64,000 nucleotides of DNA from Nanobdellota archaeon (lineage in GTDB: Archaea > Nanobdellota > Nanobdellia > Woesearchaeales > UBA583), in assembly GCA_022565615.1 (NCBI GenBank), contig JAIUMM010000002.1, forward strand, positions 884 through 64,883, written 5' to 3'. Shown one piece after another: positions 3,265 to 54,181 of the stretch. Within the stretch, counting starts at the first letter, position 1; each line of letters opens with the position of its first letter. The position numbers and the translations under genes are program-made. The notes beneath the pieces were generated by a model. That model was not told the origin of the DNA. It was given only the letters and a program-made list of their open reading frames with translations, and ran no database searches.

Positions 3265-4122
3265 ATGAATAAAAAAGCTCAAGTTTCAATATTTGTAATA
3301 ATTGGAATAATTGTAGTTGTAAGTGTAATAATACTTACTCAATTGAATTCGAATTATGATTTTAATGAACAAAATTCTATGAATAATCAAATTAATTCAA
3401 TTCAAGATTTTATATCTACTTGTATACAAAAAACTACTCATAGAGGAATTATTGAGAATTTAGAAAGAGGGGGATATTATACTATAACATCTTATGAATC
3501 TATTGAAGATAATTTTTTAACTAATGTGCCTCTATATTATAATGGGGTTGAATTATTAATTCCAACAATAAAAATATTTGAAGAAGAATTATCTAAATTT
3601 ATAACTGATGAGATTGATATTTGTTTTGATAGTTTTAGTAGTTTTGAAGAAGTAGGATACCTAATTACTCCAAATCAAGATTTTTCAACAAATGTGTTGA
3701 TACTTGATAATTCAATTTTAATTAATTCTCAATTTCCAATTTCAGGAATTACTCCTCAAAAAGAGAACTTTGATATTCAAGAATTTAGAGTTGAAATTGA
3801 TGTTAACATTAAAGAAATAATTAATCATATGGGAGAATTTATTAAAATTCATTCTGATGATTTTACTCAATTCCCAATTAGTTCTTTAATTATGTTAAGT
3901 GAGTTTGAAGATTTTCTTTTTGAATTAGATCAACTTGATGATATTATTATTGTTACATTTATTTATAATGATAATTCAAGTAATATAATTGGGAGTTCAA
4001 TAAGTAATCCAATTTATTATAATTTTGCATTAGAGTATAATTTTAAAGATGATTTATTTGAATCATTTGATTTATTAAGTGAAGAAGAATTATTCCCTGA
4101 TCAATGGGACTGGGAGGATTAG
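3265..4122 (+). CDS. secreted or pilin-like protein, unknown function
   Basis: 285 aa. The N-terminus MNKKAQVSIFVIIGIIVVVSVIIL resembles an archaeal class III (type IV pilin-like) signal: K-A-Q followed by a hydrophobic helix. Confidence 0.5.
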   Translation: MNKKAQVSIFVIIGIIVVVSVIILTQLNSNYDFNEQNSMNNQINSIQDFISTCIQKTTHRGIIENLERGGYYTITSYESIEDNFLTNVPLYYNGVELLIPTIKIFEEELSKFITDEIDICFDSFSSFEEVGYLITPNQDFSTNVLILDNSILINSQFPISGITPQKENFDIQEFRVEIDVNIKEIINHMGEFIKIHSDDFTQFPISSLIMLSEFEDFLFELDQLDDIIIVTFIYNDNSSNIIGSSISNPIYYNFALEYNFKDDLFESFDLLSEEELFPDQWDWED

Positions 4123-4125
4123 AAA

Positions 4126-6219
4126 ATGGTACAAAAAAATATTTTAAAATATTCAAAATTACTTAGTGTAAATGTAATTAAATTGTTAATCTTAGTATTT
4201 ACATTATTATTTATTACTTCAATTATATATGCTCAAACTTGTCAACAAGAAGATGATAATTGTTTAAGTGAAGAAGATTTTGTGAGTGATCCAAGAAATG
4301 CGTTTAGAAATAGTCCCAATGAAGCATGGACTTATATTATGCAAAATCCTTTAGCTACATATAATGGAATTAATGGAGAGAGTATAATTAGAGAATCATA
4401 CAGAAGTAGTAGAGAGAACTTTGTAAATGTAGTTACTCAAAATACTCAACTTTTTGAAAATCCTGTGGTAAGAGAATTATTTGAACAAGAAGTTGATAGA
4501 GATATTAACATTTTAAATCAAAACCCTAGTGCTAGAAGAGATTTTTTACGACAATATGGAATTCAAGACATTAGCACTCCTCTTCAAGATTTTAATAGAA
4601 GAAGAGGAGAGATTACAACAGTTGGATCTGATGGTCAGCAAAGAGTTACAATTCCTCTCTCAATTATGAATGGTGGAAGAGTTAATTCTGATGGTAGTGT
4701 TACTTTGGCAAATGATGTTAGAATATATTCAGGACAAGTAGATATGAGAGGGAATGAACTTAGACTTAGAAGAGGAGGAACTTTAATTGCCCCAAGCTAT
4801 GATGGAATTATTTCTTCAGATAGATTGATAGGACTTACTCAAAATTTAGATTTAAATTCATTTGAGATATCAGGAAGAAATATTGAATTAAGAGATTCAA
4901 ATAATGTATTAGTAAATAGAATTACTGGAACATATACACTATTTCCAAACAATCAAGCAGTACTTGGAGGAAGAAGTAGGATAGAATATTTAAATTCACA
5001 AGGACAAGTATTAGAACGAGTTGATGTATCACAAAATACGTTATTTTTGAGTAATCGAGCATGCCCAGATAACTCTCAGATGAGTTGTATATATAGAAGT
5101 GGTGATAGTATAGTTGTAAATCCAATTGGTAATAATAGAATAAATTATGAAATTTTTTCAACTCAATATTCACAGTTTGATGTGAGTTTAATTAGAGATA
5201 GTTCTAATGTTAGGATTAGAGTTCCAAATGATGAGGGAAGACAAGTAACTTTTGATTTAAATCAAAGAGGTCTTAGGCAAAGTGGTTTATTAGGTTCAAA
5301 TTCTAATTTTAATCTTGCTTATGAGCAAATTAGTGTAGGTCCAAATGGAGAATCTAGAATTGTAAGTATTAGTGACTATAGGATTAATAATGGGAGATAT
5401 TATTCAATTCATACAGGAGTTGAAAGACCAAATTTTGAAGCAAGTGCTCGTTGTGAGATTAATCAAAATTGCAGAATTGGTAGTCAAACATTTACAAGAA
5501 ATCAATTTGAAGTTTTTTGTAGAAATAATGATGGTCACTGTTTTAATGAATATGGAATTAGAGTTAGTTCTGATGGAAGACATTATATTAGTGGGAATCC
5601 TCCTCAAATAGTTGGTTCAACAAGTCAAAGTACAAGCAGACTTTATATGGAAGATTTAGAATTTGCAAGAACTGAAGGTTGGATTAGTTCTCAAGAAACA
5701 GGATTTAGAACTAGAACTCAAGGAGCTTCAACAAATACTAGAAATTCAGATATTCCTGTGGTTAGAAGTGGGGCCTTAGTTTATCCTGATATGAGAGCAT
5801 ATAGATGTGCTGAGCATAGTAGGAGGTCTGCAGCAGATTTATACGGGATTAATTTTATTCCAGGCAATGCTTGGGATTTTGCAGGAAATAATGCTATTAG
5901 TGCCTCATTTACCGACTCAGGTAATAGGAGGGCTTCTGCTATTTCAACTCAAGAGAGGACTTCATTTGAAACTCAAACAGTTAATGCAATTAATTCAGGA
6001 CAGATGAACCCAGGAGATGTAGTTACTGTTTGGAATCCTAGATCTAACTACGCAAGGCATGATACAACGCATACTTTATTATTTAGAGGAGTCAATCAAC
6101 AAGGTCAACCTATTTTTGATCATCAGTGGGGGAGTAGGTTTGAACAAATTACTATGGATGAAGTTTTAAATAGAAATTTGAGACCAAGAGCAGTTGTAAG
6201 GGGACAAAGAACTGCTTAA
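4126..6219 (+). CDS. large secreted or anchored protein, unknown function
   Basis: 697 aa with an N-terminal hydrophobic anchor (LLILVFTLLFITSIIYA). It is coupled to the upstream ORF by a 3-nt gap, with GGAGG at 4113-4117. The C-terminal ~140 aa has a Cys...His arrangement (YRCAEHS, PGDVVTVW, HTLLF). Confidence 0.6.
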   Translation: MVQKNILKYSKLLSVNVIKLLILVFTLLFITSIIYAQTCQQEDDNCLSEEDFVSDPRNAFRNSPNEAWTYIMQNPLATYNGINGESIIRESYRSSRENFVNVVTQNTQLFENPVVRELFEQEVDRDINILNQNPSARRDFLRQYGIQDISTPLQDFNRRRGEITTVGSDGQQRVTIPLSIMNGGRVNSDGSVTLANDVRIYSGQVDMRGNELRLRRGGTLIAPSYDGIISSDRLIGLTQNLDLNSFEISGRNIELRDSNNVLVNRITGTYTLFPNNQAVLGGRSRIEYLNSQGQVLERVDVSQNTLFLSNRACPDNSQMSCIYRSGDSIVVNPIGNNRINYEIFSTQYSQFDVSLIRDSSNVRIRVPNDEGRQVTFDLNQRGLRQSGLLGSNSNFNLAYEQISVGPNGESRIVSISDYRINNGRYYSIHTGVERPNFEASARCEINQNCRIGSQTFTRNQFEVFCRNNDGHCFNEYGIRVSSDGRHYISGNPPQIVGSTSQSTSRLYMEDLEFARTEGWISSQETGFRTRTQGASTNTRNSDIPVVRSGALVYPDMRAYRCAEHSRRSAADLYGINFIPGNAWDFAGNNAISASFTDSGNRRASAISTQERTSFETQTVNAINSGQMNPGDVVTVWNPRSNYARHDTTHTLLFRGVNQQGQPIFDHQWGSRFEQITMDEVLNRNLRPRAVVRGQRTA

Positions 6220-42535: not shown

Positions 42536-42583
42536 GCACAAGATGTTGTGCCAGATAACTTAAAACGTATCTAAATATAGTGA
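42536..42583 (+). promoter_or_regulatory. proximal tandem pair of NrdR boxes overlapping the nrdR start
   Basis: GCACAAGATGTTGTGC (42536-42551) and TATCTAAATATAGTGA (42568-42583). They share the same core and the same 32-bp phasing. The second box abuts the nrdR start codon. Confidence 0.6.
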
Positions 42584-43113
42584 AAATGTTATGCCCATAT
42601 TGTGGAAATGAAAATGTCAAAGTAATTGACTCTCGTGATAGTAAAGATGGTGAAACTATTAAGAGAAGAAGAGAGTGTTTAAATTGTAATAAAAGATTTT
42701 CAACAATTGAAAAAATTTTAAAATTAGATTTAGAAGTTATGAAATCTAATGGAGAAGTTGAAGAATTTAATATGCAAAAAATTAAAAAATCTCTTCTAAA
42801 ATGCTGTGAGAAGAGACCAATTACACTTGAACAAATTGATATTATTGCACAAAATGTTCTCTCTGATTTAAAAAAAGGGGACAAAGGAATAATTAATTCA
42901 GGAGATATTGGAAATGAAGTAATGTGTCAACTATTTCAAGTAGATAAAATTGCATTTTTGAAGTATGCAATTGTACATCACAAATATAATTCACTTGATG
43001 AATTTACTACATATTTAGAGAAATTAAAAGAGTATCCAAACCATATTGATGAGTTTCAAAAAGAAATTATAAAACATATTCAAGAAAAACAAGCTCTTGG
43101 AGATGAGAAATAA
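42580..43113 (+). CDS. nrdR: transcriptional repressor NrdR
   Basis: An N-terminal Zn ribbon (MLCPYCGNENVKVIDSRDS…RRRECLNCNKRFSTIE) is followed by an ATP-cone. The track start is a GTG at 42580; the ATG at 42586 gives the canonical MxCPxC N-terminus. Confidence 0.9.
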   Translation: MKMLCPYCGNENVKVIDSRDSKDGETIKRRRECLNCNKRFSTIEKILKLDLEVMKSNGEVEEFNMQKIKKSLLKCCEKRPITLEQIDIIAQNVLSDLKKGDKGIINSGDIGNEVMCQLFQVDKIAFLKYAIVHHKYNSLDEFTTYLEKLKEYPNHIDEFQKEIIKHIQEKQALGDEK

Positions 43114-43253: not shown

Positions 43254-45776
43254 ATGGAACAAATTATTAATTCACAACAACAAAATCAAGAAGGAGTGAG
43301 AAACGAGTTTTTTAGAAAAATAAATGAAATGTTTGATCACAAAAGTAAACTCTCAACATTAGTAGGAGATGAAAAAATTAAAGCATATAAAGAGACATAT
43401 TTTTATTTGTTTGATTTAATTGAGAAAAAAGAGTTACCTGTTCTAGATGATTTTTTTTCAGACAATACTCTGGCTCAACATATTTATAAGAATAAATACT
43501 ATTTAAAAGATTTAAATGGAAATCATATTGAAGCAAGACCTGAAGATGTTTACTTAAGACTTGCTGCTTTTATTGCATGTATTGAAGAAAACACCCATAA
43601 AAGGGAGGAAGCTGCTAAAAAATTCTATATGGATTTATTTGAAGGATATTATTTACCAGGTGGAAGAGTAATTACAGGTTCAGGAGATTTATTTAGACTT
43701 AAAACGCTTGCTAATTGTTTTGTGAGTTTAATTGAAGAAGACTCTTTAGAAGGAATTTATAAATCATCATATGAGGCTGCAAGAACGTATTCATATGGAG
43801 GAGGAATTGGAATTGATATTTCTCAATTAAGGCCTAAAAATTCAAGAGTTCATAATGCAGCTGACTCCTCAACTGGTGCTGTTTCATTTATGGAATTGTA
43901 TTCACTTACAACGGGATTAATTGGACAAGCGGGAAGAAGAGGTGCTTTAATGCTCACAATTGATTGTAAACACCCTGATGTTATGGATTTTATTAATATT
44001 AAGCAAAACCCTAATTGGACTACTGATACAATTATGCAAAGACTTCAATCATCAGGAATGTTTGATGAAGATCAATTAGCCGTTGCTCAAAAAAATATTG
44101 TTGAAAATACGCAGGTGAGATTTGCTAATATTTCAATTAAAGTAAGTGATGAGTTTATGCAAGCTGTTGATGAACAAAACCAATTTGGTAAGGAGAAAAT
44201 TGTAGTATATAAAAAGCCTAAAACTGGAAAAACTCCTGCTTTAAAGTCAGATGATTATAATTATGCGTATGGGATGTCTAAAAAAGATGTTTCAACATAT
44301 GAATTAGTTGGAGGATTTGATTCATTTGAGGCTCTAAATCAAGAAATGAGTAAATTAGGGTTCTCCTCTATGATGTCAAAAGATGTATTAGATAATATTG
44401 AACTTAGAGATTATTATGGAGAATTTGTTGTTGAGGATAAAAATGCTGATTTTGATTTAGCAATTAAATATTCAGGAGACTATTTATTATATTATAGTGG
44501 GAAGAATTGTGGAGATATTAAAGAGTTAGTTAAAGCAAGAGATGTATGGAATAAGTTTGTTGAGGGTAATTATCAAACTGCAGAACCTGGTTTAATTTTG
44601 TGGTCACAAATGACTAAATATTCTCCTTCAAATTATGTGGGAAGACCAATTTCTTGTACAAATCCTTGTGGAGAAGTTCCTTTAGAGAGTGGTGGTGCTT
44701 GTAATTTAGGTTCAATTAATTTATCAAGAATGGTTGACAATGGATTTACTAGCTCAGCGAGTATTAATTGGGAGAGATTAAAAACTACAACTCATAATTT
44801 GACACGATTTTTAGATAATGTTGTATGGTGGAATGAAAATTTAAATGCTTTAGAGAGTCAAAGAGATGCTGCAAGTATTACAAGAAGATTAGGACTTGGA
44901 GTTATGGGAATTGCTGATTTATTTAATCAACTAGGAATTGGATATGACTCAGAAGAAGGGTTAAAATTACTTGAAAGTATTATGGACACTATTGCACAAG
45001 AAGCATATAGAGAGTCTGCAAAATTAGCTGCTGAGAAAGGACCTGCTCCTGCATTCTCACAAGAATACTTTGAGAATCCATTTTATGTTGAGATTTTAGA
45101 AGATGATGTAAAAGAATTAATTAGAAAAAATGGGATTAGAAATATTGCTATTTTAGCTATTGCTCCAACAGGGACTATTTCAAATGCAATTACTGGATTT
45201 AGAACTCCTACTAAAAATTATGTAGGTGTAAGTGGTGGAATTGAACCTATTTTTGCACTATTTTATCAAAGAAGATCTGAACAGATGAATCAAGGAGGAT
45301 TGTATAACGTATTCCACTCAACTATTCAAGCATATTTAGATGTTACAAATCAATCTCATCTACTCACTGCTGCACCTGAAGAGGTAAATAAAGCACTTCC
45401 AGCGTATATGCAAAGAACTGCTCATAAAATTTCACCAAAGATGAGAGTTAAAATTCAAGGTATTGCTCAACAATATGTTGATCATTCAATTTCATCAACT
45501 ATTAATTTATCAGAAGATATTGAACCTGAGACGATTTCAAATATTTATTTAGATGCTTGGAAACATGGTCTTAAAGGAATTACAATTTACAGAGATGGTT
45601 CAAGATTCCCAATTTTAAGTGTTCAAGGGGAAGAGACTGACTTTCAAAGGTTTAAAGATAAGAAATTTAAAGTTGGAGATAAAGTTGTAAGAGGAAATGA
45701 TGTTATTGTGGGGGCTTCAGGTAAACTTACTACAGTATATCATCAAAAGCATCAAAATACGGGGGTATATAACTAA
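43254..45776 (+). CDS. nrdJ: class II (adenosylcobalamin-dependent) ribonucleotide reductase, large part (NrdJa)
   Basis: 840 aa. RNR active-site region: TNPCGEVPLESGGACNLGSINLSR. Also GGGIGIDISQLRP, AIAPTGTIS, and HSISSTINLSEDI…GLKGITIYRDGSR. Confidence 0.88.
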   Translation: MEQIINSQQQNQEGVRNEFFRKINEMFDHKSKLSTLVGDEKIKAYKETYFYLFDLIEKKELPVLDDFFSDNTLAQHIYKNKYYLKDLNGNHIEARPEDVYLRLAAFIACIEENTHKREEAAKKFYMDLFEGYYLPGGRVITGSGDLFRLKTLANCFVSLIEEDSLEGIYKSSYEAARTYSYGGGIGIDISQLRPKNSRVHNAADSSTGAVSFMELYSLTTGLIGQAGRRGALMLTIDCKHPDVMDFINIKQNPNWTTDTIMQRLQSSGMFDEDQLAVAQKNIVENTQVRFANISIKVSDEFMQAVDEQNQFGKEKIVVYKKPKTGKTPALKSDDYNYAYGMSKKDVSTYELVGGFDSFEALNQEMSKLGFSSMMSKDVLDNIELRDYYGEFVVEDKNADFDLAIKYSGDYLLYYSGKNCGDIKELVKARDVWNKFVEGNYQTAEPGLILWSQMTKYSPSNYVGRPISCTNPCGEVPLESGGACNLGSINLSRMVDNGFTSSASINWERLKTTTHNLTRFLDNVVWWNENLNALESQRDAASITRRLGLGVMGIADLFNQLGIGYDSEEGLKLLESIMDTIAQEAYRESAKLAAEKGPAPAFSQEYFENPFYVEILEDDVKELIRKNGIRNIAILAIAPTGTISNAITGFRTPTKNYVGVSGGIEPIFALFYQRRSEQMNQGGLYNVFHSTIQAYLDVTNQSHLLTAAPEEVNKALPAYMQRTAHKISPKMRVKIQGIAQQYVDHSISSTINLSEDIEPETISNIYLDAWKHGLKGITIYRDGSRFPILSVQGEETDFQRFKDKKFKVGDKVVRGNDVIVGASGKLTTVYHQKHQNTGVYN

Positions 45777-45860: not shown

Positions 45861-46610
45861 ATGGTTACTGAAGTTGTAGATTTTGATATGATTGAAGAAA
45901 TTACTCAAAGTGATGTAAATGTTCAAAATAAATCTCAAAAATCAAATGTTGAAGAGTTTGTTGAGATTAAAGAGGAGATTACTGAGATTAAGAGTCCAAG
46001 TAAGGAGGAGAAACATGAACAAGTTGATGCTAAGAAATATTCTTCTCAAACTATTGGTATGATTCAAAAGGAGGATGTTATTAAAAGGCCTGATAGTGTT
46101 GAAGCTAAGGTATATAGACTTAAAAGTAAATTTGTAAAGGAGAGGTTATATATTACGCTTTCATATGTTCAGACTGAAGATGGACAAAATAGACCAATTG
46201 AGATGTTTATTAATTCAAAGGATTTGTCTAAACTTCCTGAATATACTGTTCTTACAAGATTAATTTCTACAATTTTTAGAACATTTAAAGATCCTAAATT
46301 TATTTTAGAGGAGCTTAAGAGTATTTATGATCCAAATGGGGGATATTTCTCAAAGGGAAGATATATTTACTCATTTTATTCAGAAATTGCATTAATTATT
46401 GAAAGATTTTTTGTAGATATTGGATTTATGGGGGATCAGGAGAGTAAGTTAGATAATTGGATTGATAATGCTCAAAAGATGAATCCTGATAAAAAAATTA
46501 TTGAAAACAACTTTAAAATTTGTCCACATTGCAATGAGAAATCTCTGCAAATTGATGGAGGATGTTTAATCTGTATCAATCCAGATTGTGGATACTCCAA
46601 ATGCTCTTAA
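45861..46610 (+). CDS. nrdJb: class II ribonucleotide reductase C-terminal part (NrdJb-like)
   Basis: 249 aa. It contains the segment RLYITLSYVQTEDGQNRPIEMFINSKD…LTRLISTIFR and a terminal Cys cluster CPHCN…GGCLICINPDCGYSKCS. AGGTG lies 7 nt upstream of the ATG, so it is operon-internal. Confidence 0.7.
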   Translation: MVTEVVDFDMIEEITQSDVNVQNKSQKSNVEEFVEIKEEITEIKSPSKEEKHEQVDAKKYSSQTIGMIQKEDVIKRPDSVEAKVYRLKSKFVKERLYITLSYVQTEDGQNRPIEMFINSKDLSKLPEYTVLTRLISTIFRTFKDPKFILEELKSIYDPNGGYFSKGRYIYSFYSEIALIIERFFVDIGFMGDQESKLDNWIDNAQKMNPDKKIIENNFKICPHCNEKSLQIDGGCLICINPDCGYSKCS

Positions 46611-46628
46611 AGTAACTTTTAGTTGCTT
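46610..46628 (+). terminator. hairpin immediately after nrdJb stop
   Basis: AAGTAACT-ttt-AGTTGCTT forms an 8-bp stem with one G-T pair. Confidence 0.35.
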
Positions 46629-46725
46629 AAAGTTAAATTTTGAGTAAAACGAAAACCTATTCTTTTGGCTTACTTTTCTTAATGATTTGCAAAGGAATGT
46701 TAAAGAAAAGGAAGAGTGGGAAGCA

Positions 46726-46855
46726 TCGTTGCAGATTGATGGAGGATGTTTAATACACTAGACAAAACGAAGTTTTGGAGGTGTTCCAAGAATTTTTTGA
46801 AGAAAAATTGTTGATATGTATCAATCCAGATTGCGGATATAGTAAATGTAGTTAA
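46726..46855 (+). pseudogene. interrupted duplicate of the last 22 codons of nrdJb
   Basis: 46726-46755 encodes SLQIDGGCLI and 46817-46855 encodes CINPDCGYSKCS*. Together these are identical in protein to 46542-46610. The two parts are separated by a 61-nt insert that breaks the frame. Confidence 0.8.
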
Positions 46856-46857
46856 TT

Positions 46858-46891
46858 AAGCAACTTTGTTGCTTGAAAATATTTTATTTTC
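46858..46891. terminator. two adjacent perfect 7-bp hairpins between convergent genes
   Basis: AAGCAAC-ttt-GTTGCTT (46858-46874) and GAAAATA-ttt-TATTTTC (46875-46891). Confidence 0.4.
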
Positions 46892-46949
46892 AAATTAATT
46901 TAAATTATTTTTATTTGCTTCTCTTTCAATTTCTTCTTCAACTTTCAAT

Positions 46950-47963
46950 TTAGTATCTTTTTTTTTCTTTTTCTTTTCTCAATATTTGTTTACTAAAAGT
47001 ATCAAAATCACTTTCAATATGTTGAGTACTATTAAAAATATCATATTCTTGACCTGCTTTTTCTTTTGCTTTTTCAAATGAAATCTCTCCTTTACCATCT
47101 AATATTTTATACTCTTGAAAATCTAAAAATTTATCAACTGATAATTTAAATTCTTCCATAGTAAACACTCTTTTTCTCTCAATTAATCCTTCAATATAAT
47201 CAAAAAAACCAGTAATTACTCTCTCAAGTTGTTTAATCCCTTTCTCATCTAAATAATTTTTAGCAATTAATACATCACTTTTTAAAATTCTATCTTTATT
47301 CTTCCAAGTCTTTAAACCTAGATTTTCCTTTTTATGAGAAACATTTGAATAAATAATCTCACTTGCAGTTTTATTTGAAATAGCATAATGAAATTTATTT
47401 TGAATTGTTGCAAAAAACTCTCTTGTAACATCTGAATGTTTATCATAATCAATAGAACATTCAGCAAAAATATCAGTAATTTGTTGATAAATTCTCCTCT
47501 CACTTGCACGAATTGAACGAATTCTCTCAAGTAATTCTTTAAAATAATTTTTATTCAAATCTTGTCCTTGCTTTAAACGTTCATCATCTAACACATATCC
47601 TTTTAAAATAAACTCTTTTAATTGCTTTGTTGCCCAAATTCTAAACTGAGTAGCTTTTTGTGAATTCACACGATACCCAACACTAATAATAGCATCTAAA
47701 TTATAAAATAAAGTTTGATATGTTTTACCATCTAAAGCAGTATGTGCAAATTTTGCACTAACTGAATTTTCAACAAGCTCTTCTTCATCAAAAATATTTT
47801 TTAAATGCTTAGTAATTACTGTCCTATCAACCCCAAATAACTCTGCCATTAACTTTTGAGTAAGCCAAATATTTTCATCTCTAAAATAAACTTCAATTTG
47901 AGAATTTCTCTCTTGATTAAATAATGCAAATGATTTAACAACAAAATTAGAATCCTTATTCAT
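46950..47963 (-). CDS. rhuM: RhuM-family (virulence protein RhuM-like) protein
   Basis: 337 aa. The N-terminal region IEVYFRDENIWLTQKLMAELFGVDRTVITKHLKNIFDEEEL…YNLDAIISVGYRVNSQKATQFRIWATKQLKEFILKGYVLDDERLK is the characteristic RhuM signature. Confidence 0.85.
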   Translation of the reverse strand: MNKDSNFVVKSFALFNQERNSQIEVYFRDENIWLTQKLMAELFGVDRTVITKHLKNIFDEEELVENSVSAKFAHTALDGKTYQTLFYNLDAIISVGYRVNSQKATQFRIWATKQLKEFILKGYVLDDERLKQGQDLNKNYFKELLERIRSIRASERRIYQQITDIFAECSIDYDKHSDVTREFFATIQNKFHYAISNKTASEIIYSNVSHKKENLGLKTWKNKDRILKSDVLIAKNYLDEKGIKQLERVITGFFDYIEGLIERKRVFTMEEFKLSVDKFLDFQEYKILDGKGEISFEKAKEKAGQEYDIFNSTQHIESDFDTFSKQILRKEKEKKRY

Positions 47964-48385
47964 TTTTTATCCTCAAATATTTCTACAAATTCTTTTATTT
48001 TTTCTGTTTGATAATTATTAATTTCAAAACTTTCTTTTTTTGCCATTTCTATAAATTTAAGATTATCAAATTGAAAATTATTTTTTTTCAAAAAATTACT
48101 AAGTTCTGTACTTCCTTTCGTTCTACAAGAACAAATGATAATATCACAATTTTTCAATTCATTAATTATCCTATATAAATTATACTTATCATCTCCTCCT
48201 GTATTTATACCAATTTTTTTCTTTTCATATTTAAAAGAAAAAGTGATATCTTTTTTTTCATTTGAATTTGTTCTTTTATTAAATCCATAAAAAAAATTAA
48301 ACTGAAAGTATTCTTCTAAAATTTTATATATTATTGAAGTTTTTCCAGTATTTGATTTTCCTCTAAAACATATTATATTGACCAT
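47960..48385 (-). CDS. small P-loop NTPase, unknown family
   Basis: The start is taken at MVNIICFRGKSNTGKTS (ATG at 48385), which has GGAGGT 9 nt upstream; the track's longer start at 48427 is less likely. Walker A is GKSNTGKT. The stop overlaps the rhuM start (ATGA). Confidence 0.6.
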   Translation of the reverse strand: MVNIICFRGKSNTGKTSIIYKILEEYFQFNFFYGFNKRTNSNEKKDITFSFKYEKKKIGINTGGDDKYNLYRIINELKNCDIIICSCRTKGSTELSNFLKKNNFQFDNLKFIEMAKKESFEINNYQTEKIKEFVEIFEDKK

Positions 48386-48390
48386 CTTAT

Positions 48391-48588
48391 TTACCTCCAG
48401 AAAATCAGATTTTGCTCTTTTGCCCAATTCTCAAACTCATAAGCAATTTCTTCTAAATATGTAAATTTTTCATTATTATCTTTTTGAAAAATTCTATTTT
48501 GAATATTTTTAATTTCATTATTTGTAAAAATTAACCAGTTAAAATTAAAATTTTTCTTAATTAAGTTTTTTAAACTTTCTTTTTCCAT
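48391..48588 (-). CDS. small protein, unknown function (first gene of the rhuM operon)
   Basis: 65-aa ORF. Its stop lies 5 nt before the P-loop gene's ATG, and its last codons contain that gene's SD. Confidence 0.4.
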   Translation of the reverse strand: MEKESLKNLIKKNFNFNWLIFTNNEIKNIQNRIFQKDNNEKFTYLEEIAYEFENWAKEQNLIFWR

Positions 48589-48605
48589 ATTATTTTTTAG
48601 ATAAA

Positions 48606-48620
48606 GTTATTTAAAAATAT
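48606..48620 (-). promoter_or_regulatory. TATA-like box for the 48588-46950 operon
   Basis: The minus strand reads ATATTTTTAAATAAC, centred about 25 nt upstream of the ATG at 48588. Confidence 0.4.
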
Positions 48621-48692
48621 TTTTATTATCAACAATAGAAAACTTTCACTAAAACCAAAAACTCTTTTTAGATAGTTATTTGAATAACAAAT

Positions 48693-48770
48693 TTCTCCAA
48701 CAATAATGTTATGCGAAGATAATATGACAAATTGAGGGAAAATTGATTAGATAAGAATATATTTATAAAT
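48693..48770 (+). repeat. 78-bp promoter-bearing repeat, copy A
   Basis: Ungapped alignment to 50215-50292 gives 69/78 identities (hand count). It ends in TTTATAAA (48762-48769), 21 nt upstream of the ATG at 48791. Confidence 0.85.
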
Positions 48771-48790
48771 GTTTATTCCATAATTTATTT

Positions 48791-49306
48791 ATGAGTAGTA
48801 AAAAAATATCTTTTGATCCTAATGGTGTTAGATTGATTCAAAGGTTGGTTGAACCTTCATACCATAGTGACTCAACTGCTTGGAGTAGAGTAAGAGGACT
48901 TACAAGAGAACAAAAAGAAGCAATCTCAGATGTATTTGCCTTTGATTATATGGGGAATAGTGAATTTGAATTTGGAGAACCTAAAAAGGCTTTAAATGAT
49001 ATTGCAAAATATTCAAATAACAGTAAAGGAAGAACTGGATTAATTGAAATTTCAAATACTCCATTATTTTATCTGTGTCATAGAGGAGTTGAAGAAATAG
49101 TTGAGAATACGATTCAAAGATTTAGTAATAATGATAGAACTGGTTTAGCTGAACCTTTATATTTAAGAGAAAAATTAGGTCTAGAAGAAAGTTTTCATCC
49201 TGAAATTGATAGATTAAGTGGTTGGTTAGATTGTGGTAACAATTGGGCTTTTTTTGCTAATGAAAAAATGTTTCAAAGATTTAAAAAATTATTCCCAAGA
49301 TTATAA
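48791..49306 (+). CDS. hypothetical protein
   Basis: 171-aa ORF directly downstream of repeat copy A. No motif recognised. Confidence 0.55.
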   Translation: MSSKKISFDPNGVRLIQRLVEPSYHSDSTAWSRVRGLTREQKEAISDVFAFDYMGNSEFEFGEPKKALNDIAKYSNNSKGRTGLIEISNTPLFYLCHRGVEEIVENTIQRFSNNDRTGLAEPLYLREKLGLEESFHPEIDRLSGWLDCGNNWAFFANEKMFQRFKKLFPRL

Positions 49307-49376
49307 ATATTTTTAAAATTCTAAAGCAGTTAAGTAAAATAGATATTAATTTAAATACAATCTCCTTTTCTTATAT

Positions 49377-50228
49377 ATGAGTAATAACATTTGGAAAGAT
49401 TCAAATCATTTATATCTTCTCTCTCAAACTGTTCAAAATTTAAGAAGAATGAGAACTGCTTGTGTATCATCAGGTTTAACATTTTCACAAAAATTAAATA
49501 AAAATATTAATAATTTTGCAGGAGGAAATCAAAGGGAAATTTCTCCTAAACAAGCGTATCAAGATGCACAAGAATTAGCAAATTTAATGTCCTCTATTAG
49601 TTCAAAAGGAGTAATTATGGGAGAAATGGATGATAAATTAATAAGAGATATTGAAATATTTCTACAAGACTCTACAAAAGATTACGGATTATATGAAGAA
49701 GGAACATTTTCAGGTGCAGGGATGCAAAATGTAATTTTTCGTTCAATGAAAGGAAGAATGAAATGTTTAACATATGATCCTGAACATTTTTTAACTTGGG
49801 AACTTACAATAAATAATAATTTAGGTAATAACAAATCTTTAACTGATGCATTATCAAAAGAAATGCCTTCAGTAGTTGCCCCACTCTCAGGAGATTATTT
49901 ATTAGCTTTAATTTACAGCAAATATTTAGAACAAACAAGGGGAAAATCATTTGAAATAGCTCCAATAATGTTAAGTAGTGATTTAGAGACTTATTATTAT
50001 CCAAAAGATAACTTAGAAAAACTTCCATACCTGAATAAAAGAAAAATAGGAGTATATACAGATACAAAAGATTCAGGAAGCACTATTGAAAGATTAGATG
50101 AAATTCTAAGACAAGTGTATAAAGAGACACAATGTGAAATTTTAGAATCTCCATTTGACCCTGAAGTTTATCAAGCAAGAGAAAAAGTTATGAAAATATT
50201 TCAAATAATAATAATTCTCCAGCAATAA
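49377..50228 (+). CDS. hypothetical protein
   Basis: 283-aa ORF. Its last ~5 codons run into repeat copy B. Confidence 0.55.
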   Translation: MSNNIWKDSNHLYLLSQTVQNLRRMRTACVSSGLTFSQKLNKNINNFAGGNQREISPKQAYQDAQELANLMSSISSKGVIMGEMDDKLIRDIEIFLQDSTKDYGLYEEGTFSGAGMQNVIFRSMKGRMKCLTYDPEHFLTWELTINNNLGNNKSLTDALSKEMPSVVAPLSGDYLLALIYSKYLEQTRGKSFEIAPIMLSSDLETYYYPKDNLEKLPYLNKRKIGVYTDTKDSGSTIERLDEILRQVYKETQCEILESPFDPEVYQAREKVMKIFQIIIILQQ

Positions 50229-50292
50229 TGTTATGTGAAGATAATATGACAAATTGTAGGAGAATTGACTAAATAAAGATATATTTATAAAT
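50215..50292 (+). repeat. 78-bp promoter-bearing repeat, copy B
   Basis: See copy A. TTTATAAA lies at 50284-50291, 22 nt upstream of the ATG at 50314. A 7-bp inverted repeat ATTCTCC…GGAGAAT flanks the conserved core. Confidence 0.85.
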
Positions 50293-50313
50293 ATTATAAT
50301 TCTTATAATATAT

Positions 50314-50517
50314 ATGATACAAGTTGCAAATAATTATACTACTATTAGAATTGATAGAGAAACTAAAAAAATGCTTGATTCAATTACTCCAAGAGATGTA
50401 TCTTACTCAGAGATGATTAGAAAACTTGCTTCAATAGTTGATGAAAAGGAAGTAGCAGAATTATTTATTCAATCTTTAAAATCCTCCTCTAAATATGTTT
50501 CAATTGATGAACTATGA
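50314..50517 (+). CDS. ribbon-helix-helix (CopG-like) antitoxin candidate
   Basis: 67 aa. The N-terminal strand-helix TTIRIDRETKKMLDSI…SYSEMIRKLASI fits RHH. Its stop overlaps the next ATG (ATGA). Confidence 0.5.
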   Translation: MIQVANNYTTIRIDRETKKMLDSITPRDVSYSEMIRKLASIVDEKEVAELFIQSLKSSSKYVSIDEL

Positions 50518-50855
50518 AAAAAGTATTAATTGATGAAAAAGTTAAAGCTCTCATTAATACAAAATTTAAATCTGATAAGAAACAGATTATTTCTTACTTT
50601 AAAAAATTAGAGTTAAATTCTCAATTAGGTGATTTTGTATTTGCAATAAGTAATGTAGAATGTAGAGAAATAAAAATTAAAGGGATTAGAATGTTTACTG
50701 TACAGTATAGAAATCAGATTTTTATATCTATTGATGATACATTTTATGACACTATAAAAATAATTAATATAGCAAGAAAAAATAAATCTATGGAGCAGCA
50801 AAGAATTATTGATAATATTAAGAAGAGAATAAAATCTTTTGGAATGGATATATAG
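50514..50855 (+). CDS. RelE/ParE-superfamily toxin candidate
   Basis: 113 aa. The pattern …DKKQIISYFKKLELN…CREIKIKGIRMFTVQYRNQIFI…IKIINIARKNKS matches the RelE/ParE/HigB-like layout. It is translationally coupled to the RHH gene. Confidence 0.45.
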   Translation: MKKVLIDEKVKALINTKFKSDKKQIISYFKKLELNSQLGDFVFAISNVECREIKIKGIRMFTVQYRNQIFISIDDTFYDTIKIINIARKNKSMEQQRIIDNIKKRIKSFGMDI

Positions 50856-50902
50856 AAAAATATTACAAAAATTTAAATAAATATCAAATAAATATAATTC
50901 TA

Positions 50903-51508
50903 ATGGTTAACGATTTAACAAATATTCTTATAGAAGTAGGACTTGCTCGAAATCAAGTTCACAATCACAGATTTTCTCAAATTAGAACTGAAAATCCTTC
51001 AAATTTAAAAAAATATATTCTAGAAGAATCTCAAAGATTAAATTTTGACTTACCTACAAATCCCTATGTATTATATTACACTCTTGGAGATGCTGATTTT
51101 GATGAGGCTCAATTGTGGTATCCTTTTTTAGAAACAAATTCTTATCCTCAAAATAATGTTAGAAGAAATCTTGAACATAATCTTTTATTACATGAAATAA
51201 GAGATGTTAGCAGAACTTTATCCTCAAGAGGAGATGGGTATGAAGTGTTAGAAGTATTTAAACATAGTGATGAAGAAATAAAACCTAGAGAAAGAATTTT
51301 TGCTCTTCCTCGTTTTAGAGTATATGAATATGGAGAAGTTGTAAGAGAATCAGATTTAGTAGGAGAAAGAGAATATGCAGATAATTTTAGAGAAGAAGAT
51401 AGAGAAAAGAGATTAGAAATGTCTAGACAACGTGCAAAACAAACAAGAAGAGATTGTGGAGGAAGATATAGAAGAATGGCTAAAATGATTACAGAAAAGA
51501 GAAGATAA
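50903..51508 (+). CDS. hypothetical protein with Arg/Glu-rich C-terminus
   Basis: 201-aa ORF. ATTTAAATAA lies 23 nt upstream of the ATG. Confidence 0.5.
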   Translation: MVNDLTNILIEVGLARNQVHNHRFSQIRTENPSNLKKYILEESQRLNFDLPTNPYVLYYTLGDADFDEAQLWYPFLETNSYPQNNVRRNLEHNLLLHEIRDVSRTLSSRGDGYEVLEVFKHSDEEIKPRERIFALPRFRVYEYGEVVRESDLVGEREYADNFREEDREKRLEMSRQRAKQTRRDCGGRYRRMAKMITEKRR

Positions 51509-51533
51509 AATTACATTTATTATAGGTTTAGTG

Positions 51534-52061
51534 TTAAATTAATTCTTCCAATCTTTTTCTATCTAATTTTTTAAGAGGTTCAATTGAGCCAATATTAATA
51601 CCATCTCCTATTTCAATAAACGGATTTTTTATCATCTCAGGAGTTCCAAAAACAACAAATTTTTCATCATAAATAGTATATGCAAGAGAAACTATTTGTA
51701 CATTGCTTCCTCTATAAACAGGTTCAGAGAGTTTACTTAAAAATGAATCAACTCTTTGAAGAGATAAATTATTAGGTTTTGGATATTTAATTCTTTTAAA
51801 TTGAGGTGTTATAATACTAAAATTTTGAAAACTCCACTCATCAATATTTGGGTCTATTAATCCAATACCAAAACAATGTTTAGACATACTTCCACAATGT
51901 TTTAAGCCTTGTTTCATTTGTTTTAGAAATTCATTAATCCCAAGATAACTACGAGAATCATCAAAATTTCTAAATCCAAATTCTTCAAGATATTTTCTTA
52001 TATTAAAATTAGGAGAAGAATTTGCACATTTTTGAAGTTCTTCTAATGCTGTTTCAATCAA
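51534..52061 (-). CDS. hypothetical protein, paralog family member 1
   Basis: 175 aa. It aligns with ORF 52893-53444: SPNFNIRKYLEEFGF vs NPNFDILQTMGTFGF, and ITPQFKRIKYP…SLQRVDSFLSKLSE vs YTPEFRRFRNT…PKSSIDTLCEILSQ. Confidence 0.55.
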   Translation of the reverse strand: MIETALEELQKCANSSPNFNIRKYLEEFGFRNFDDSRSYLGINEFLKQMKQGLKHCGSMSKHCFGIGLIDPNIDEWSFQNFSIITPQFKRIKYPKPNNLSLQRVDSFLSKLSEPVYRGSNVQIVSLAYTIYDEKFVVFGTPEMIKNPFIEIGDGINIGSIEPLKKLDRKRLEELI

Positions 52062-52117
52062 CTTAATTAAATAATAACATAAATATATTTAAATACTTCT
52101 CTTATAATTATTATTAT

Positions 52118-52900
52118 ATGAGTTCTCAACATTATAAAGAAGAAGATATTAAATTAGTTCAAGAAGTAGTTGAGAAAATAATAATTTTACTATCACAAAA
52201 TTCTTTTAAAATAATTAAAGAATTATCAACAAAAAAATTAAATAGTTTTGATGCTATAATTAGAGAATTTCAAAGAATAATATATATAGAATTAACAATT
52301 CAAAATGTAATTGTACAATCTCCTTACGAGTTTGTATCTCCATATAAACCATTACTTTCAAAAGAAATTAGAAAAGAAGGAAGAAGTGATAGTAATTCAA
52401 TAAGTTCAGGAGTTGGAACATATTTATCAATAATAATTGCTCTATTTTTAATTTCAAAAGGATTAGAAAAACATAATTTTCAAATCTCAAAAGAATACTT
52501 TGAACTTCTTGCATACTCTTCTCTTGATATAATTGATTATAATAAAAAAATATTTGGTGTTGAAGTAATACATCAAAAACTATTTAATTTTATTCCTATC
52601 AAACCAAGAGTTATAATCTCAAATTCTATTCCTTTTCTCAATGATGCACTCTTTAAATTAGGTGGAGGAGCATGTCCATATACAAATGGAAAAAAAGGTA
52701 AAGATTTAAATGCTAAATTAATTACTCAATCTTTAATATTTTTAGAACAATTTTATCAAAAAATTTTATCAAAATATGAACATTTAGAATATAAACCAAA
52801 TACAATACCTGATTTTCTCATAATATTAAGAGGAGAGTTTGATGCTATAAATTTTGAACATTTATATAATAATCCTTCAATTTTTAAAAAAATTAACTAA
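52118..52900 (+). CDS. hypothetical protein
   Basis: 260-aa ORF between the two paralogs. It has one central hydrophobic segment (GTYLSIIIALFLISKG). Confidence 0.5.
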   Translation: MSSQHYKEEDIKLVQEVVEKIIILLSQNSFKIIKELSTKKLNSFDAIIREFQRIIYIELTIQNVIVQSPYEFVSPYKPLLSKEIRKEGRSDSNSISSGVGTYLSIIIALFLISKGLEKHNFQISKEYFELLAYSSLDIIDYNKKIFGVEVIHQKLFNFIPIKPRVIISNSIPFLNDALFKLGGGACPYTNGKKGKDLNAKLITQSLIFLEQFYQKILSKYEHLEYKPNTIPDFLIILRGEFDAINFEHLYNNPSIFKKIN

Positions 52901-53444
52901 AAAATTCTTCCCCAATTTTAATTTGAGGAATACTTCCATTAATTTTAATATTTCCTTTTTTATTATCATACATTATTCTATTTATAGCATCATAATAATG
53001 AGAATTATCACTCTTTACTCTTAAACACTTAGATAAGAGGAATTCTGATTTTTTTCTAAAATCAACTCTTCTAATTACAACATCATCTTTTAATTCTTGA
53101 GATAATATTTCACATAATGTATCTATTGAACTTTTAGGTAATCCAGTAGTATTTCTAAATCTTCTAAATTCAGGCGTATATAAATCAATAGTGCCAAATT
53201 TGTCTTCTTCATCTTCAAAAGAACATATATAGCACAAATCTTTACTTCTCCCATTTAATATAATAGGAATCATCGGATTCTTAGAGTTATTAAATAATGA
53301 GTTTAATTTAGATTGAATTCCTCTATATTCTCTATGATTAAATGATATTGGAAATCCAAATGTTCCCATTGTTTGTAAAATATCAAAATTAGGATTTTGA
53401 ATATACTTTCTTAATTCTAAATGTGGAACTACCATAAAAGACAT
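52893..53444 (-). CDS. hypothetical protein, paralog family member 2
   Basis: 183 aa. See 51534-52061. It overlaps the convergent 260-aa gene by 8 nt. Confidence 0.55.
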   Translation of the reverse strand: MSFMVVPHLELRKYIQNPNFDILQTMGTFGFPISFNHREYRGIQSKLNSLFNNSKNPMIPIILNGRSKDLCYICSFEDEEDKFGTIDLYTPEFRRFRNTTGLPKSSIDTLCEILSQELKDDVVIRRVDFRKKSEFLLSKCLRVKSDNSHYYDAINRIMYDNKKGNIKINGSIPQIKIGEEFFS

Positions 53445-53480
53445 AATTACTTTATCTTTTTAAATATGTTTATAAGTTAA

Positions 53481-53780
53481 TTGGGCTCTATAAATTGTAT
53501 GATTGAATTTATAGTAAATCAACTTTTAGAAGGATTTTCAAGATATTATGGACTTGATTATATTAGTTTTATACTTGGAGTGAGTGGAACAATTTTACTC
53601 ACTAAGAAAAATGAAGCAGGATTTTTGCTCACAGCAAGTTCAGTAGTTCTTGCATCAATTGTAGCTGTAATTGCTCAACAATATGGATTTTTAGTTGCAA
53701 ATACTGTAAGTTTTGTATTACTTATTAGAGGATTTATTATTTGGAGAAAAGAGAAAAAATTAGTAATTAAAACAATTTAA
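53481..53780 (+). CDS. small 3-TM membrane protein (PnuC- or semiSWEET-like?)
   Basis: 99 aa from a TTG start; an in-frame ATG at 53499 gives MIEFIVNQ…. It has three hydrophobic helices. LLTKKNEAGF and the terminal GFIIWRK are weakly PnuC-like. Confidence 0.35.
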   Translation: MGSINCMIEFIVNQLLEGFSRYYGLDYISFILGVSGTILLTKKNEAGFLLTASSVVLASIVAVIAQQYGFLVANTVSFVLLIRGFIIWRKEKKLVIKTI

Positions 53781-53788
53781 ATTAATTA

Positions 53789-54181
53789 TTAAAATAATCT
53801 ATCTAAATCAACATTACATGTTAAATTTAAATTGTGAGTATGTTTAGTAGTTTTGTATGGAAGAAGTTTTCCATTTAGTGCTTTTTTAATAATTTCTTCT
53901 TTAGTACAACGTAAGTGTAGTCTATTTGGATAAAAATCAAGAATAAAAGAAGAATCTTGAACATAATTTACATATACAACAGGAATAAATTTACATCCCA
54001 AATCCAGAAGAACACTATACCTATGATGTCCATCTAAAATAACATTTGATTTTTTATCAATTATAATTGCTCTTTCAATAACATTATTCTCAGCAATACC
54101 TGCACTCACAACTTCATAATTCTCAAAATCAACTTCTTCGTGAGGAAGAAGAGCATCAATTTCAACTATTTCAAACGACAT
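53789..54181 (-). CDS. ParB/sulfiredoxin (Srx)-fold domain protein
   Basis: 130 aa. IDALLPHEEV… followed by AIIIDKKSNVILDGHHRYSVLLDLG shows the DGxHR motif of ParB-N/Srx-fold proteins. Last gene of the minus-strand operon. Confidence 0.6.
   Translation of the reverse strand: MSFEIVEIDALLPHEEVDFENYEVVSAGIAENNVIERAIIIDKKSNVILDGHHRYSVLLDLGCKFIPVVYVNYVQDSSFILDFYPNRLHLRCTKEEIIKKALNGKLLPYKTTKHTHNLNLTCNVDLDRLF

Follow-up and report, generated by a model that had tools for sequence, protein, structure and literature searches.

A second, interrupted copy of the nrdJb 3' end at the border of a variable genomic island in a woesearchaeal archaeon

The nrdJb locus and its repeated 3' end

The 64-kb stretch of DNA analyzed here (hereafter, the window) comes from a Nanobdellota archaeon of the order Woesearchaeales (GenBank contig JAIUMM010000002.1) and has a G+C content of 25.7%. 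It contains an nrdR-nrdJa-nrdJb operon, in which nrdR (42580-43113) is followed by nrdJa (43254-45776), the homologues of which contain Ribonuc_red domains, and then by nrdJb, an open reading frame (ORF) of 249 amino acids (45861-46610, plus strand). A look-up of the exact NrdJb sequence of the window gave no record; the closest public relatives of this protein come from metagenome-assembled genomes (MAGs) of Woesearchaeota and other DPANN archaea; altogether, 637 homologues were found, and the distant ones contain the Pfam domain TSCPD (PF12637), which identifies nrdJb as the small C-terminal piece of a split class II ribonucleotide reductase. The subject of this analysis is the 3' end of nrdJb, which is present twice at this locus.

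The last 22 codons of nrdJb together with the stop codon recur downstream in two pieces, and each copy translates to SLQIDGGCLICINPDCGYSKCS*. The working tail (copy 1, 46542-46610, plus strand) consists of a first half that encodes SLQIDGGCLI (T5, 46542-46571) and a second half that encodes CINPDCGYSKCS*, including the stop codon (T3, 46572-46610); the matching pieces of copy 2, on the same strand, are T5* (46726-46755), again encoding SLQIDGGCLI, and T3* (46817-46855), again encoding CINPDCGYSKCS*. A tblastn search within the window matched both pieces of copy 2 at E = 3e-8 and found no third copy of the tail; the duplication is not due to chance. In the codon alignment, the copies differ at 12 of the 69 nucleotides, one fewer than had been counted by hand in the first-pass annotation that drew attention to the locus; the differences fall into 9 codons and, as claimed there, are synonymous without exception (12 of 12). 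Both of the reported serine switches between TCN and AGT codons are present, but only one of them (TCC to AGT) needs three changes, the other one (TCT to AGT) requiring two. The copies share identical blocks of 20 and 18 nt. Their homology begins at 46541 and 46725, respectively, with none farther upstream, in agreement with the original statement that the similarity stops at the SLQ codons. The tail also contains an inverted repeat, GATTGAT...ATCAATC followed by CAGATTG (46549-46582), that derives from the QID and INPDC codons. When the RNA of the window is folded, this repeat pairs one tail half with the other, but L013, one of the relatives discussed below, has not kept it.

Each copy is followed by its own hairpin, as originally described. 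Hairpin H1 (46611-46628, plus strand; AGTAAC-TTTTA-GTTGCT) is located directly 3' of the stop codon of copy 1, and hairpin H2 (46856-46876, plus strand; TTAAGCAAC-TTT-GTTGCTTGA), which follows copy 2, is the sole terminator-like site in the region 46400-47000. The copies are separated by a spacer of 115 nt (46611-46725, plus strand), which can be divided into part A, ending with TTCTTTTGGCTTACTTT at about 46676, and part B, starting with TCTTAATGA at 46677 and associated with its own hairpin (arms 46669-46687 and 46696-46714). Derivation of the spacer from decayed nrdJb or from a decayed tail was rejected, the alignment scores being no better than those of shuffled sequences. The window contains no second copy of the spacer, nor dispersed hairpins resembling repetitive extragenic palindromes (REP), those of the GCAAC..GTTGC and AAAAC..GTTTT types being confined within the window to the nrdJb locus; the 64 kb likewise contain no tRNA and no Rfam match.

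Copy 2 is split by a 61-nt insert, element C (46756-46816, plus strand), a two-hairpin module that shifts the reading frame and adds a TAG codon at 46759-46761. The similar short repeats noticed on its flanks are TTAATA, directly before the element, and TTGATA, its final six bases; because ATA is present on both sides, the borders of the element can slide by up to 3 nt.

The repeated gene end coincides with a break in synteny. Gene order upstream of nrdJb is conserved with the related loci L001 and L002, and the synteny comparison detected nothing shared downstream of the gene with L001, L002, L012 or L013. The break lies exactly at the nrdJb 3' end, so that the scar marks the left edge of an accessory block (46950-54181), as had been proposed. 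The position is occupied by different genes in different genomes: L001 carries a gene for a 973 amino acid DNA methyltransferase (N6_N4_Mtase) and L013 contains insertion sequences. The sequence following copy 2 includes H2 and a short flank (46856-46905, plus strand) that is common to L002 and, over its first bases, to L012; homology to every relative stops after this flank.

Conservation and variation of the locus in relatives

Examination of the homologous loci (identified here by L numbers, with the identity of NrdJb to the window protein in parentheses) shows that the split copy is old and shared, rather than recent or private to the window genome. The locus L002 (79%) contains the same spacer and the same split copy, with the insert at the same codon boundary. 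In L013 (70%), which resides on a 1.09-Mb contig, there are three tails, namely, that of the gene itself, one split by the insert and one that is intact, followed by an nrdJb fragment and two transposase genes. In L116 and L117 (73%), which come from two samples, a 15-nt piece of the first tail half joined to the insert appears 24 nt after the stop codon, and the contigs end there, inside element C. Thus, element C occupies the same position in copy 2 of four lineages, which implies that the split copy is old. The first-pass proposal that the second copy is the displaced original end of nrdJb, or the end of a different allele, accordingly holds in outline, given an empty site in L012 and the allele affinities described below, but not as a recent private event, given L002, L013 and L116/L117.

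Other relatives display different states of the locus. The sister lineage L001 (87%) has no second tail but retains the spacer, in which element C is inserted at GTTT^TCTTAATGA. The empty site, with the tail and the hairpin followed by the next gene, is found in L012 (79%; 86% in the A2 alignment). The loci L112-L115 and L118, of lower identity, contain neither spacer nor insert within the available sequence, and L112-L115 have a single tail. In the more distant L124-L127 (69%), nrdJb is followed, 24 nt on, by convergent cbf5/truB, without an island, an order that may represent the compact ancestral arrangement.

Two further loci contain independent, shorter duplications of the same gene end. 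In L015 (67%; L015:853-1175), a repeat of the last 9 codons (ECGYSKCS*) is found 290 nt downstream; the 5 nucleotide differences between the two are all silent and include an AGT-TCT switch, and a 62 amino acid membrane-like ORF separates the gene from the remnant. In L019 (73%), there is a 24-nt perfect repeat, the copies of which are about 100 nt apart (L019:713-890); it spans the last 17 nt of nrdJb and 6 nt beyond, covering the last 5 codons, and is accompanied by an additional 16-nt repeat of the flank, with about 100 nt of unrelated sequence between the copies.

The hairpin and the spacer can be traced across these genomes. A hairpin homologous to H1 (GCAAC..GTTGC) is located 3' of the tail in L001, L012 and L013, and the homologous spacer was aligned in L001, L002 and L013. 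The identity of the spacer to that of L013 is about 73%, close to the 64-69% identity of fourfold-degenerate sites between lineages (41% being expected by chance), so that the spacer needs no function to be alignable.

The L013 locus merits a separate description. In the region L013:3134-3847 and 4093-5702, the three near-identical tails are arranged in tandem, the units measuring about 190 and 242 nt; next comes another piece of nrdJb, FIDIGFMGDAKSKLDNWIENAKKMNPQKEIKE (3719-3847), which lacks the tail, and then two transposase genes, one of the Y1 (IS200/IS605) type at a distance of about 700 nt from the array and one of the DDE type. An antisense ORF of L013, used as bait for additional arrays, yielded no candidates. 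As a technical aside, in L113 (657-2844) nrdJa is called as several short ORFs, due to frameshifts or assembly errors, and nrdJb is intact.

Contigs tend to break at this very position: L009, L010 and L011 stop 9 nt after the nrdJb stop codon, and L116 and L117 stop, as noted, inside element C. These contig ends suggest strain-level variation or repeats at the exact point of the scar.

Element C, a two-hairpin module specific to the locus

Element C is better conserved than the sequence around it: between the window and L013, its copies agree at 38 of 42 nt (90%), compared with about 73% for the spacer. All four complete copies consist of two hairpins closed by CAC/GTG and CAA/TTG around the invariant GGTGTTCCAA, with stems that differ in sequence and length: the stem of the first hairpin is CAAAAC/GTTTTG, GCAAC/GTTGC or GTAAC/GTTAC, and the second hairpin has 8-bp A/T stems of varying sequence. 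In the window, the closing pairs are formed by CAC(T) at 46756-46759 with GGTG at 46780-46783, and the two hairpins span 46763-46777 and 46787-46813. The fold z-scores of the four copies are -3.2, -4.4, -2.2 and -1.7. A long-range helix between spacer part A and element C was rejected because, by inspection, it is not kept in L013.

The element is always on the strand of nrdJb, 40-150 nt downstream of the stop codon of the working gene. In the window, L002, L013 and L116, it is flanked by the CL(I/M) and CIN codons, and in L001 it occupies a second site, inside the spacer; in these two different contexts it has the same ends, CAC(T/A)AG...TTGATA (TTGTTA in L013). There is no target-site duplication and no terminal inverted repeat, and no Rfam family was matched. 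A profile search detected no further copy in the 64-kb window or in about 125 loci, and a search of the viral contigs of IMG/VR, of the kind suggested at first pass, produced no match to the tail, the matches to element C motifs having unrelated flanks.

These observations do not bear out the suggestion that the insert is a dispersed miniature inverted-repeat transposable element (MITE). What they reveal instead is a conserved, locus-specific module with a second site inside the L001 spacer. Of the hallmarks of MITEs and of miniature elements derived from IS200/IS605, identical termini at different insertion sites are observed, whereas dispersed copies, terminal inverted repeats or target-site duplications and a cognate transposase were not found in the 64 kb, the roughly 125 loci or IMG/VR. 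The likeness of element C to REP/REPIN sequences and IS200/IS605-derived elements consists in the small size, the abundance of hairpins, the precise ends without target duplication, the location just 3' of a gene and the Y1 transposase gene near the L013 array. Those elements, however, are dispersed in many copies per genome, whereas element C was found only at the nrdJb 3' end, and the hairpins of the IS200-like element in L013 are unrelated to those of element C. Element C may be a locus-specific mobile or recombinogenic module or, perhaps, an RNA element of the 3' untranslated region, and it is the sole part of the locus that might hide new biology.

Silent divergence and allele affinities of the two copies

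The purely synonymous divergence of the two copies is incompatible with free decay of copy 2. Among random single changes in the tail segment, about 21% are silent, and under a model in which copy 2 drifts freely and copy 1 is constrained, about 66% of the differences are expected to be non-silent. The probability of observing none among 12 is about 2e-6, which excludes free drift and upholds the claim that copy 2 evolved as coding sequence: for almost all of its separate history, it was working coding sequence or else was overwritten by such. Across the clade, the protein sequence of the tail shows almost no variation, and serine codons swap freely between TCN and AGY among lineages.

The second halves of the two copies resemble the tails of different relatives. 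T3 of copy 1 is 3 nt away from the L001 tail and 8 nt away from T3* of copy 2; including the flank, it matches L001 at 62 of 71 positions. Conversely, T3* is 6 nt from the working tail of L116, 7 nt from that of L012 and 8 nt from copy 1; with the hairpin and flank, it matches L012 at 62 of 69 positions, compared with 56 of 68 for the two window copies with their flanks. The window thus appears, from these sequence affinities, to hold tail halves of two allele types, L001-like and L012/L116-like, each of which is the working type in some lineage, and this would account for the silence of all the differences. The operon is nearest to L001 over its full length, and no recombination breakpoint is visible within nrdJa or nrdJb, the window being closest to L001 throughout, so that the copy 1 block looks vertically inherited.

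Signs of overwriting are seen in two relatives. The L013 repeats are 100% identical over 119 nt, with the non-coding flank included. In L002, the copies share a 38-nt identical tract between diverged stretches, and copy 2 carries the D to E change of its own copy 1. These tracts result from gene conversion or recent duplication, not from selection at the protein level.

Origin of the second copy

Taken together, the observations make it probable, albeit with considerable room for doubt, that copy 2 represents a 3' end of nrdJb that was displaced and is not translated, in other words, a recombination scar between the conserved nrdR-nrdJa-nrdJb operon and a hypervariable island. The same arrangement in the independent assemblies L002, L013 and L116/L117, the empty site in L012 with a tail 3' half and flank resembling copy 2, and the independent shorter duplications at the same gene end in L015 and L019 all point in this direction.

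From these data, we infer the following route and timing of the recombination. About 185 nt, made up of a tail, its hairpin and the 115-nt spacer, would have been added to the gene end in an ancestor of these Woesearchaeota, so that the end became present twice. Most likely, homology inside nrdJb would have anchored the recombination on one side, and the joint on the opposite side would have been illegitimate; alternatively, the end could have been duplicated locally in tandem. The downstream copy would later have been split by the small hairpin element C, and the structure would subsequently have been lost in L012, rearranged in L001 and amplified in L013. Copy 2 would have been kept in a coding-like state by repeated overwriting by, or exchange with, working tails, either through gene conversion from copy 1 or through homologous exchange with other alleles when the adjacent island is swapped, the tail and its hairpin serving as the left anchor.

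Several considerations weigh against this scenario. In an old split copy, the perfect coding state seen in the window requires repeated refreshing, which we infer rather than observe; no donor and recipient pair and no island swap was caught directly. The evidence base is small (69 nt), and the first tail halves are mosaic, with few informative sites, so that no clean allele assignment emerges for them and the contrast between a resident and a displaced allele concerns T3 and its flank. The short identical blocks of the copies (20 and 18 nt) would also suit a site-specific recombinase. Finally, element C is a separate module that the displaced-end model does not explain, and neither does the model explain its elevated conservation.

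The alternative that deserves the most attention, although we consider it rather unlikely, is that the scar is the remnant of a site-specific integration event, as the first-pass annotation had suggested among other possibilities. Under this scenario, the attP site of an element carried a replacement nrdJb tail, and a Campbell-type crossover occurred in the tail, making copy 1 attL and copy 2 attR; the spacer would be an internally deleted, cis-mobilisable mini-element, and the L013 array would have arisen by tandem accretion. Integration classically leaves direct repeats of the 3' end of a gene that diverge at silent sites, as is familiar from icd with e14 and phage 21 and from islands at tRNA and tmRNA genes, and the nrdJb copies match this pattern. 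The empty site, the identical blocks, the tandem array and the location of element C exactly at the junction of the tail halves in copy 2, a possible crossover point, are also compatible with integration. However, Pfam searches found no integrase in 46950-54181, that is, within about 7 kb; a far-end att repeat was not found in the window, and a second tail at a distance was detected neither there nor among about 90 related loci; and all the tail duplications enclose just 100-300 nt (115 nt in the window). The duplicated lengths differ, from 22 codons in the window, L002 and L013 to 9 codons in L015 and the 24-nt repeat in L019, and so do the left junctions of the variable DNA, which lie inside spacer part B in L001, about 10 nt past the hairpin in L012 and about 45 nt past it in the window and L002. 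Nor was any related sequence found in IMG/VR. The locus thus shows no sign of site-specific integration, and given the variable junctions, the lack of a detected integrase and the short enclosed DNA, homology-anchored illegitimate joints fit better than the activity of an integrase.

A more speculative scenario, which we regard as decidedly unlikely, puts element C at the center. It would be an undescribed, locus-specific mobile or recombinogenic DPANN module of 47-61 nt with two hairpins whose insertion, precise and with no target duplicated, would hit the part of the nrdJb tail that is conserved best, and the second tail would compensate for the presence of the module in the end of an essential gene; equivalently, element C with the flanking tail pieces would be a working exchange site of the adjacent defence-like island.

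Less probable still, and in our assessment highly unlikely, is the possibility that copy 2 functions in place, being expressed after removal or bypass of element C (as a bulge-helix-bulge type intron or by a gene 60-like hop) or as a mini-ORF, or else being under indirect selection as a conversion donor for the essential tail. The 12 silent differences and the retention of the split copy in several lineages speak in favor of this model. By inspection, both the window and L002 keep the T3 frame open through element C; in the window, a partial bulge-helix-bulge can form, with UUAA (preceding the 5' junction) pairing with UUGA (preceding the 3' junction) and GAUGU pairing with GUAUC; and the third copy in L013 contains an ATG (MRTSLQLDGGCLMCINPECGYSKCS). 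Against this model, there is no conserved start or reading frame upstream of copy 2 in the window, L002 and L013 sequences, the upstream frame, closed in the window by a TAA at 46645-46647, differing among the three; L116 retains just 15 nt of the first piece; the RNA folds of the copy 2 region are no better than those of shuffled sequences in 3 of the 4 lineages that were folded; and the identity of the L013 copies spans the non-coding flanks, which is indicative of conversion rather than protein-level selection. An archaeal bulge-helix-bulge intron was rejected since the window, folded by hand, offers a 4-bp central and a 5-bp outer helix, with no inner helix and no host ORF; in L013 the central helix contains a mismatch, and the L001 site does not allow it to form. 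Programmed bypass of the T4 gene 60 type was rejected as well: the take-off and landing codons match in the window only (ATA/ATA, as opposed to ATT/ATA in L002 and ATG/TTA in L013), the TAG is not adjacent but one codon off the take-off codon and is absent in L002, and there is no conserved upstream ORF.

An assembly artefact that joined two strain variants of the nrdJb end head to tail is extremely improbable: metagenome contigs do break at this point, but independent assemblies, which come from different samples and lineages and include the 1.09-Mb contig, repeat the same order of parts, and neither the spacer nor element C is a variant form of another part of the gene. Separately, a diversity-generating retroelement was rejected because every base, not just adenine, is affected among the 12 differences, none of which alters an amino acid, and because the neighbouring ORFs were not found to include a reverse transcriptase.

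Comparison with known systems

By mechanism, the closest known counterparts of the displaced nrdJb end are the loci of type VI secretion systems (T6SS), Rhs proteins and contact-dependent inhibition (CDI), in which the 3' ends of genes are displaced sequentially by homology-facilitated illegitimate recombination (Kirchberger et al. 2017, PMC5361080). There, the conserved 5' part of the gene anchors the incoming DNA, and the old 3' end is pushed downstream as a fragment without a start; repeated events give rise to arrays, and the locus adjoins a variable region. The nrdJb locus shows the same combination of an upstream anchor, variable downstream DNA and a start-less fragment. The differences are substantial, however. 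In T6SS, Rhs and CDI loci, the displaced ends are different toxin tips with immunity genes, the diversity of which is selected, whereas the nrdJb copies encode the same 22 residues; the DNA enclosed at nrdJb contains no cargo gene except for the 62 amino acid ORF in L015; and nrdJb is an archaeal housekeeping reductase gene. Because all the nrdJb tail copies encode the same peptide, the likeness is one of mechanism only, not of family membership.

The second comparison is with gene 3'-end duplication at integrase attachment sites, as in Escherichia coli icd, with e14 or phage 21, and in tRNA and tmRNA islands. The common features are a replacement 3' end with silent differences, the original end persisting as a pseudo-copy, and an empty site in relatives (here, L012 and L112-L115). 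In those systems, however, the copies flank a whole integrase-bearing prophage or island and contain a constant crossover core, whereas at nrdJb the copies flank no recombinase-bearing element, being 115 nt apart with no integrase found, and neither the core nor the junctions are constant between genomes.

The locus is, then, another instance of a type of genomic scar already known, accompanied by one small unexplained element, and does not represent a new kind of system. In Woesearchaeota, recombination and insertion recur at the 3' end of nrdJb, which forms the border of a variable, defence-like island in very small genomes, in which little is known about the gain and loss of accessory DNA. 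Arguably, it also provides a worked case of a dead gene fragment that mimics purifying selection since working alleles refresh it.

The accessory block

The accessory block downstream of the scar (46950-54181) consists of a RhuM-family gene (46950-47963, minus strand; PF13310, E = 7e-100; PADLOC candidate PDC-S05) and nine ORFs that match no Pfam family; from 54212 on, the genes are again ordinary metabolic ones. Near the ends of the block, there is a 19-nt A/T-rich inverted match (18 of 19 positions; 46893-46911 and 53769-53787), which is of low complexity (E = 0.02) and may be due to chance. The RhuM-family gene overlaps a 155 amino acid P-loop-like ORF, and the L002 island contains a relative, at 51% identity, of a 113 amino acid ORF of the block (50514-50855).

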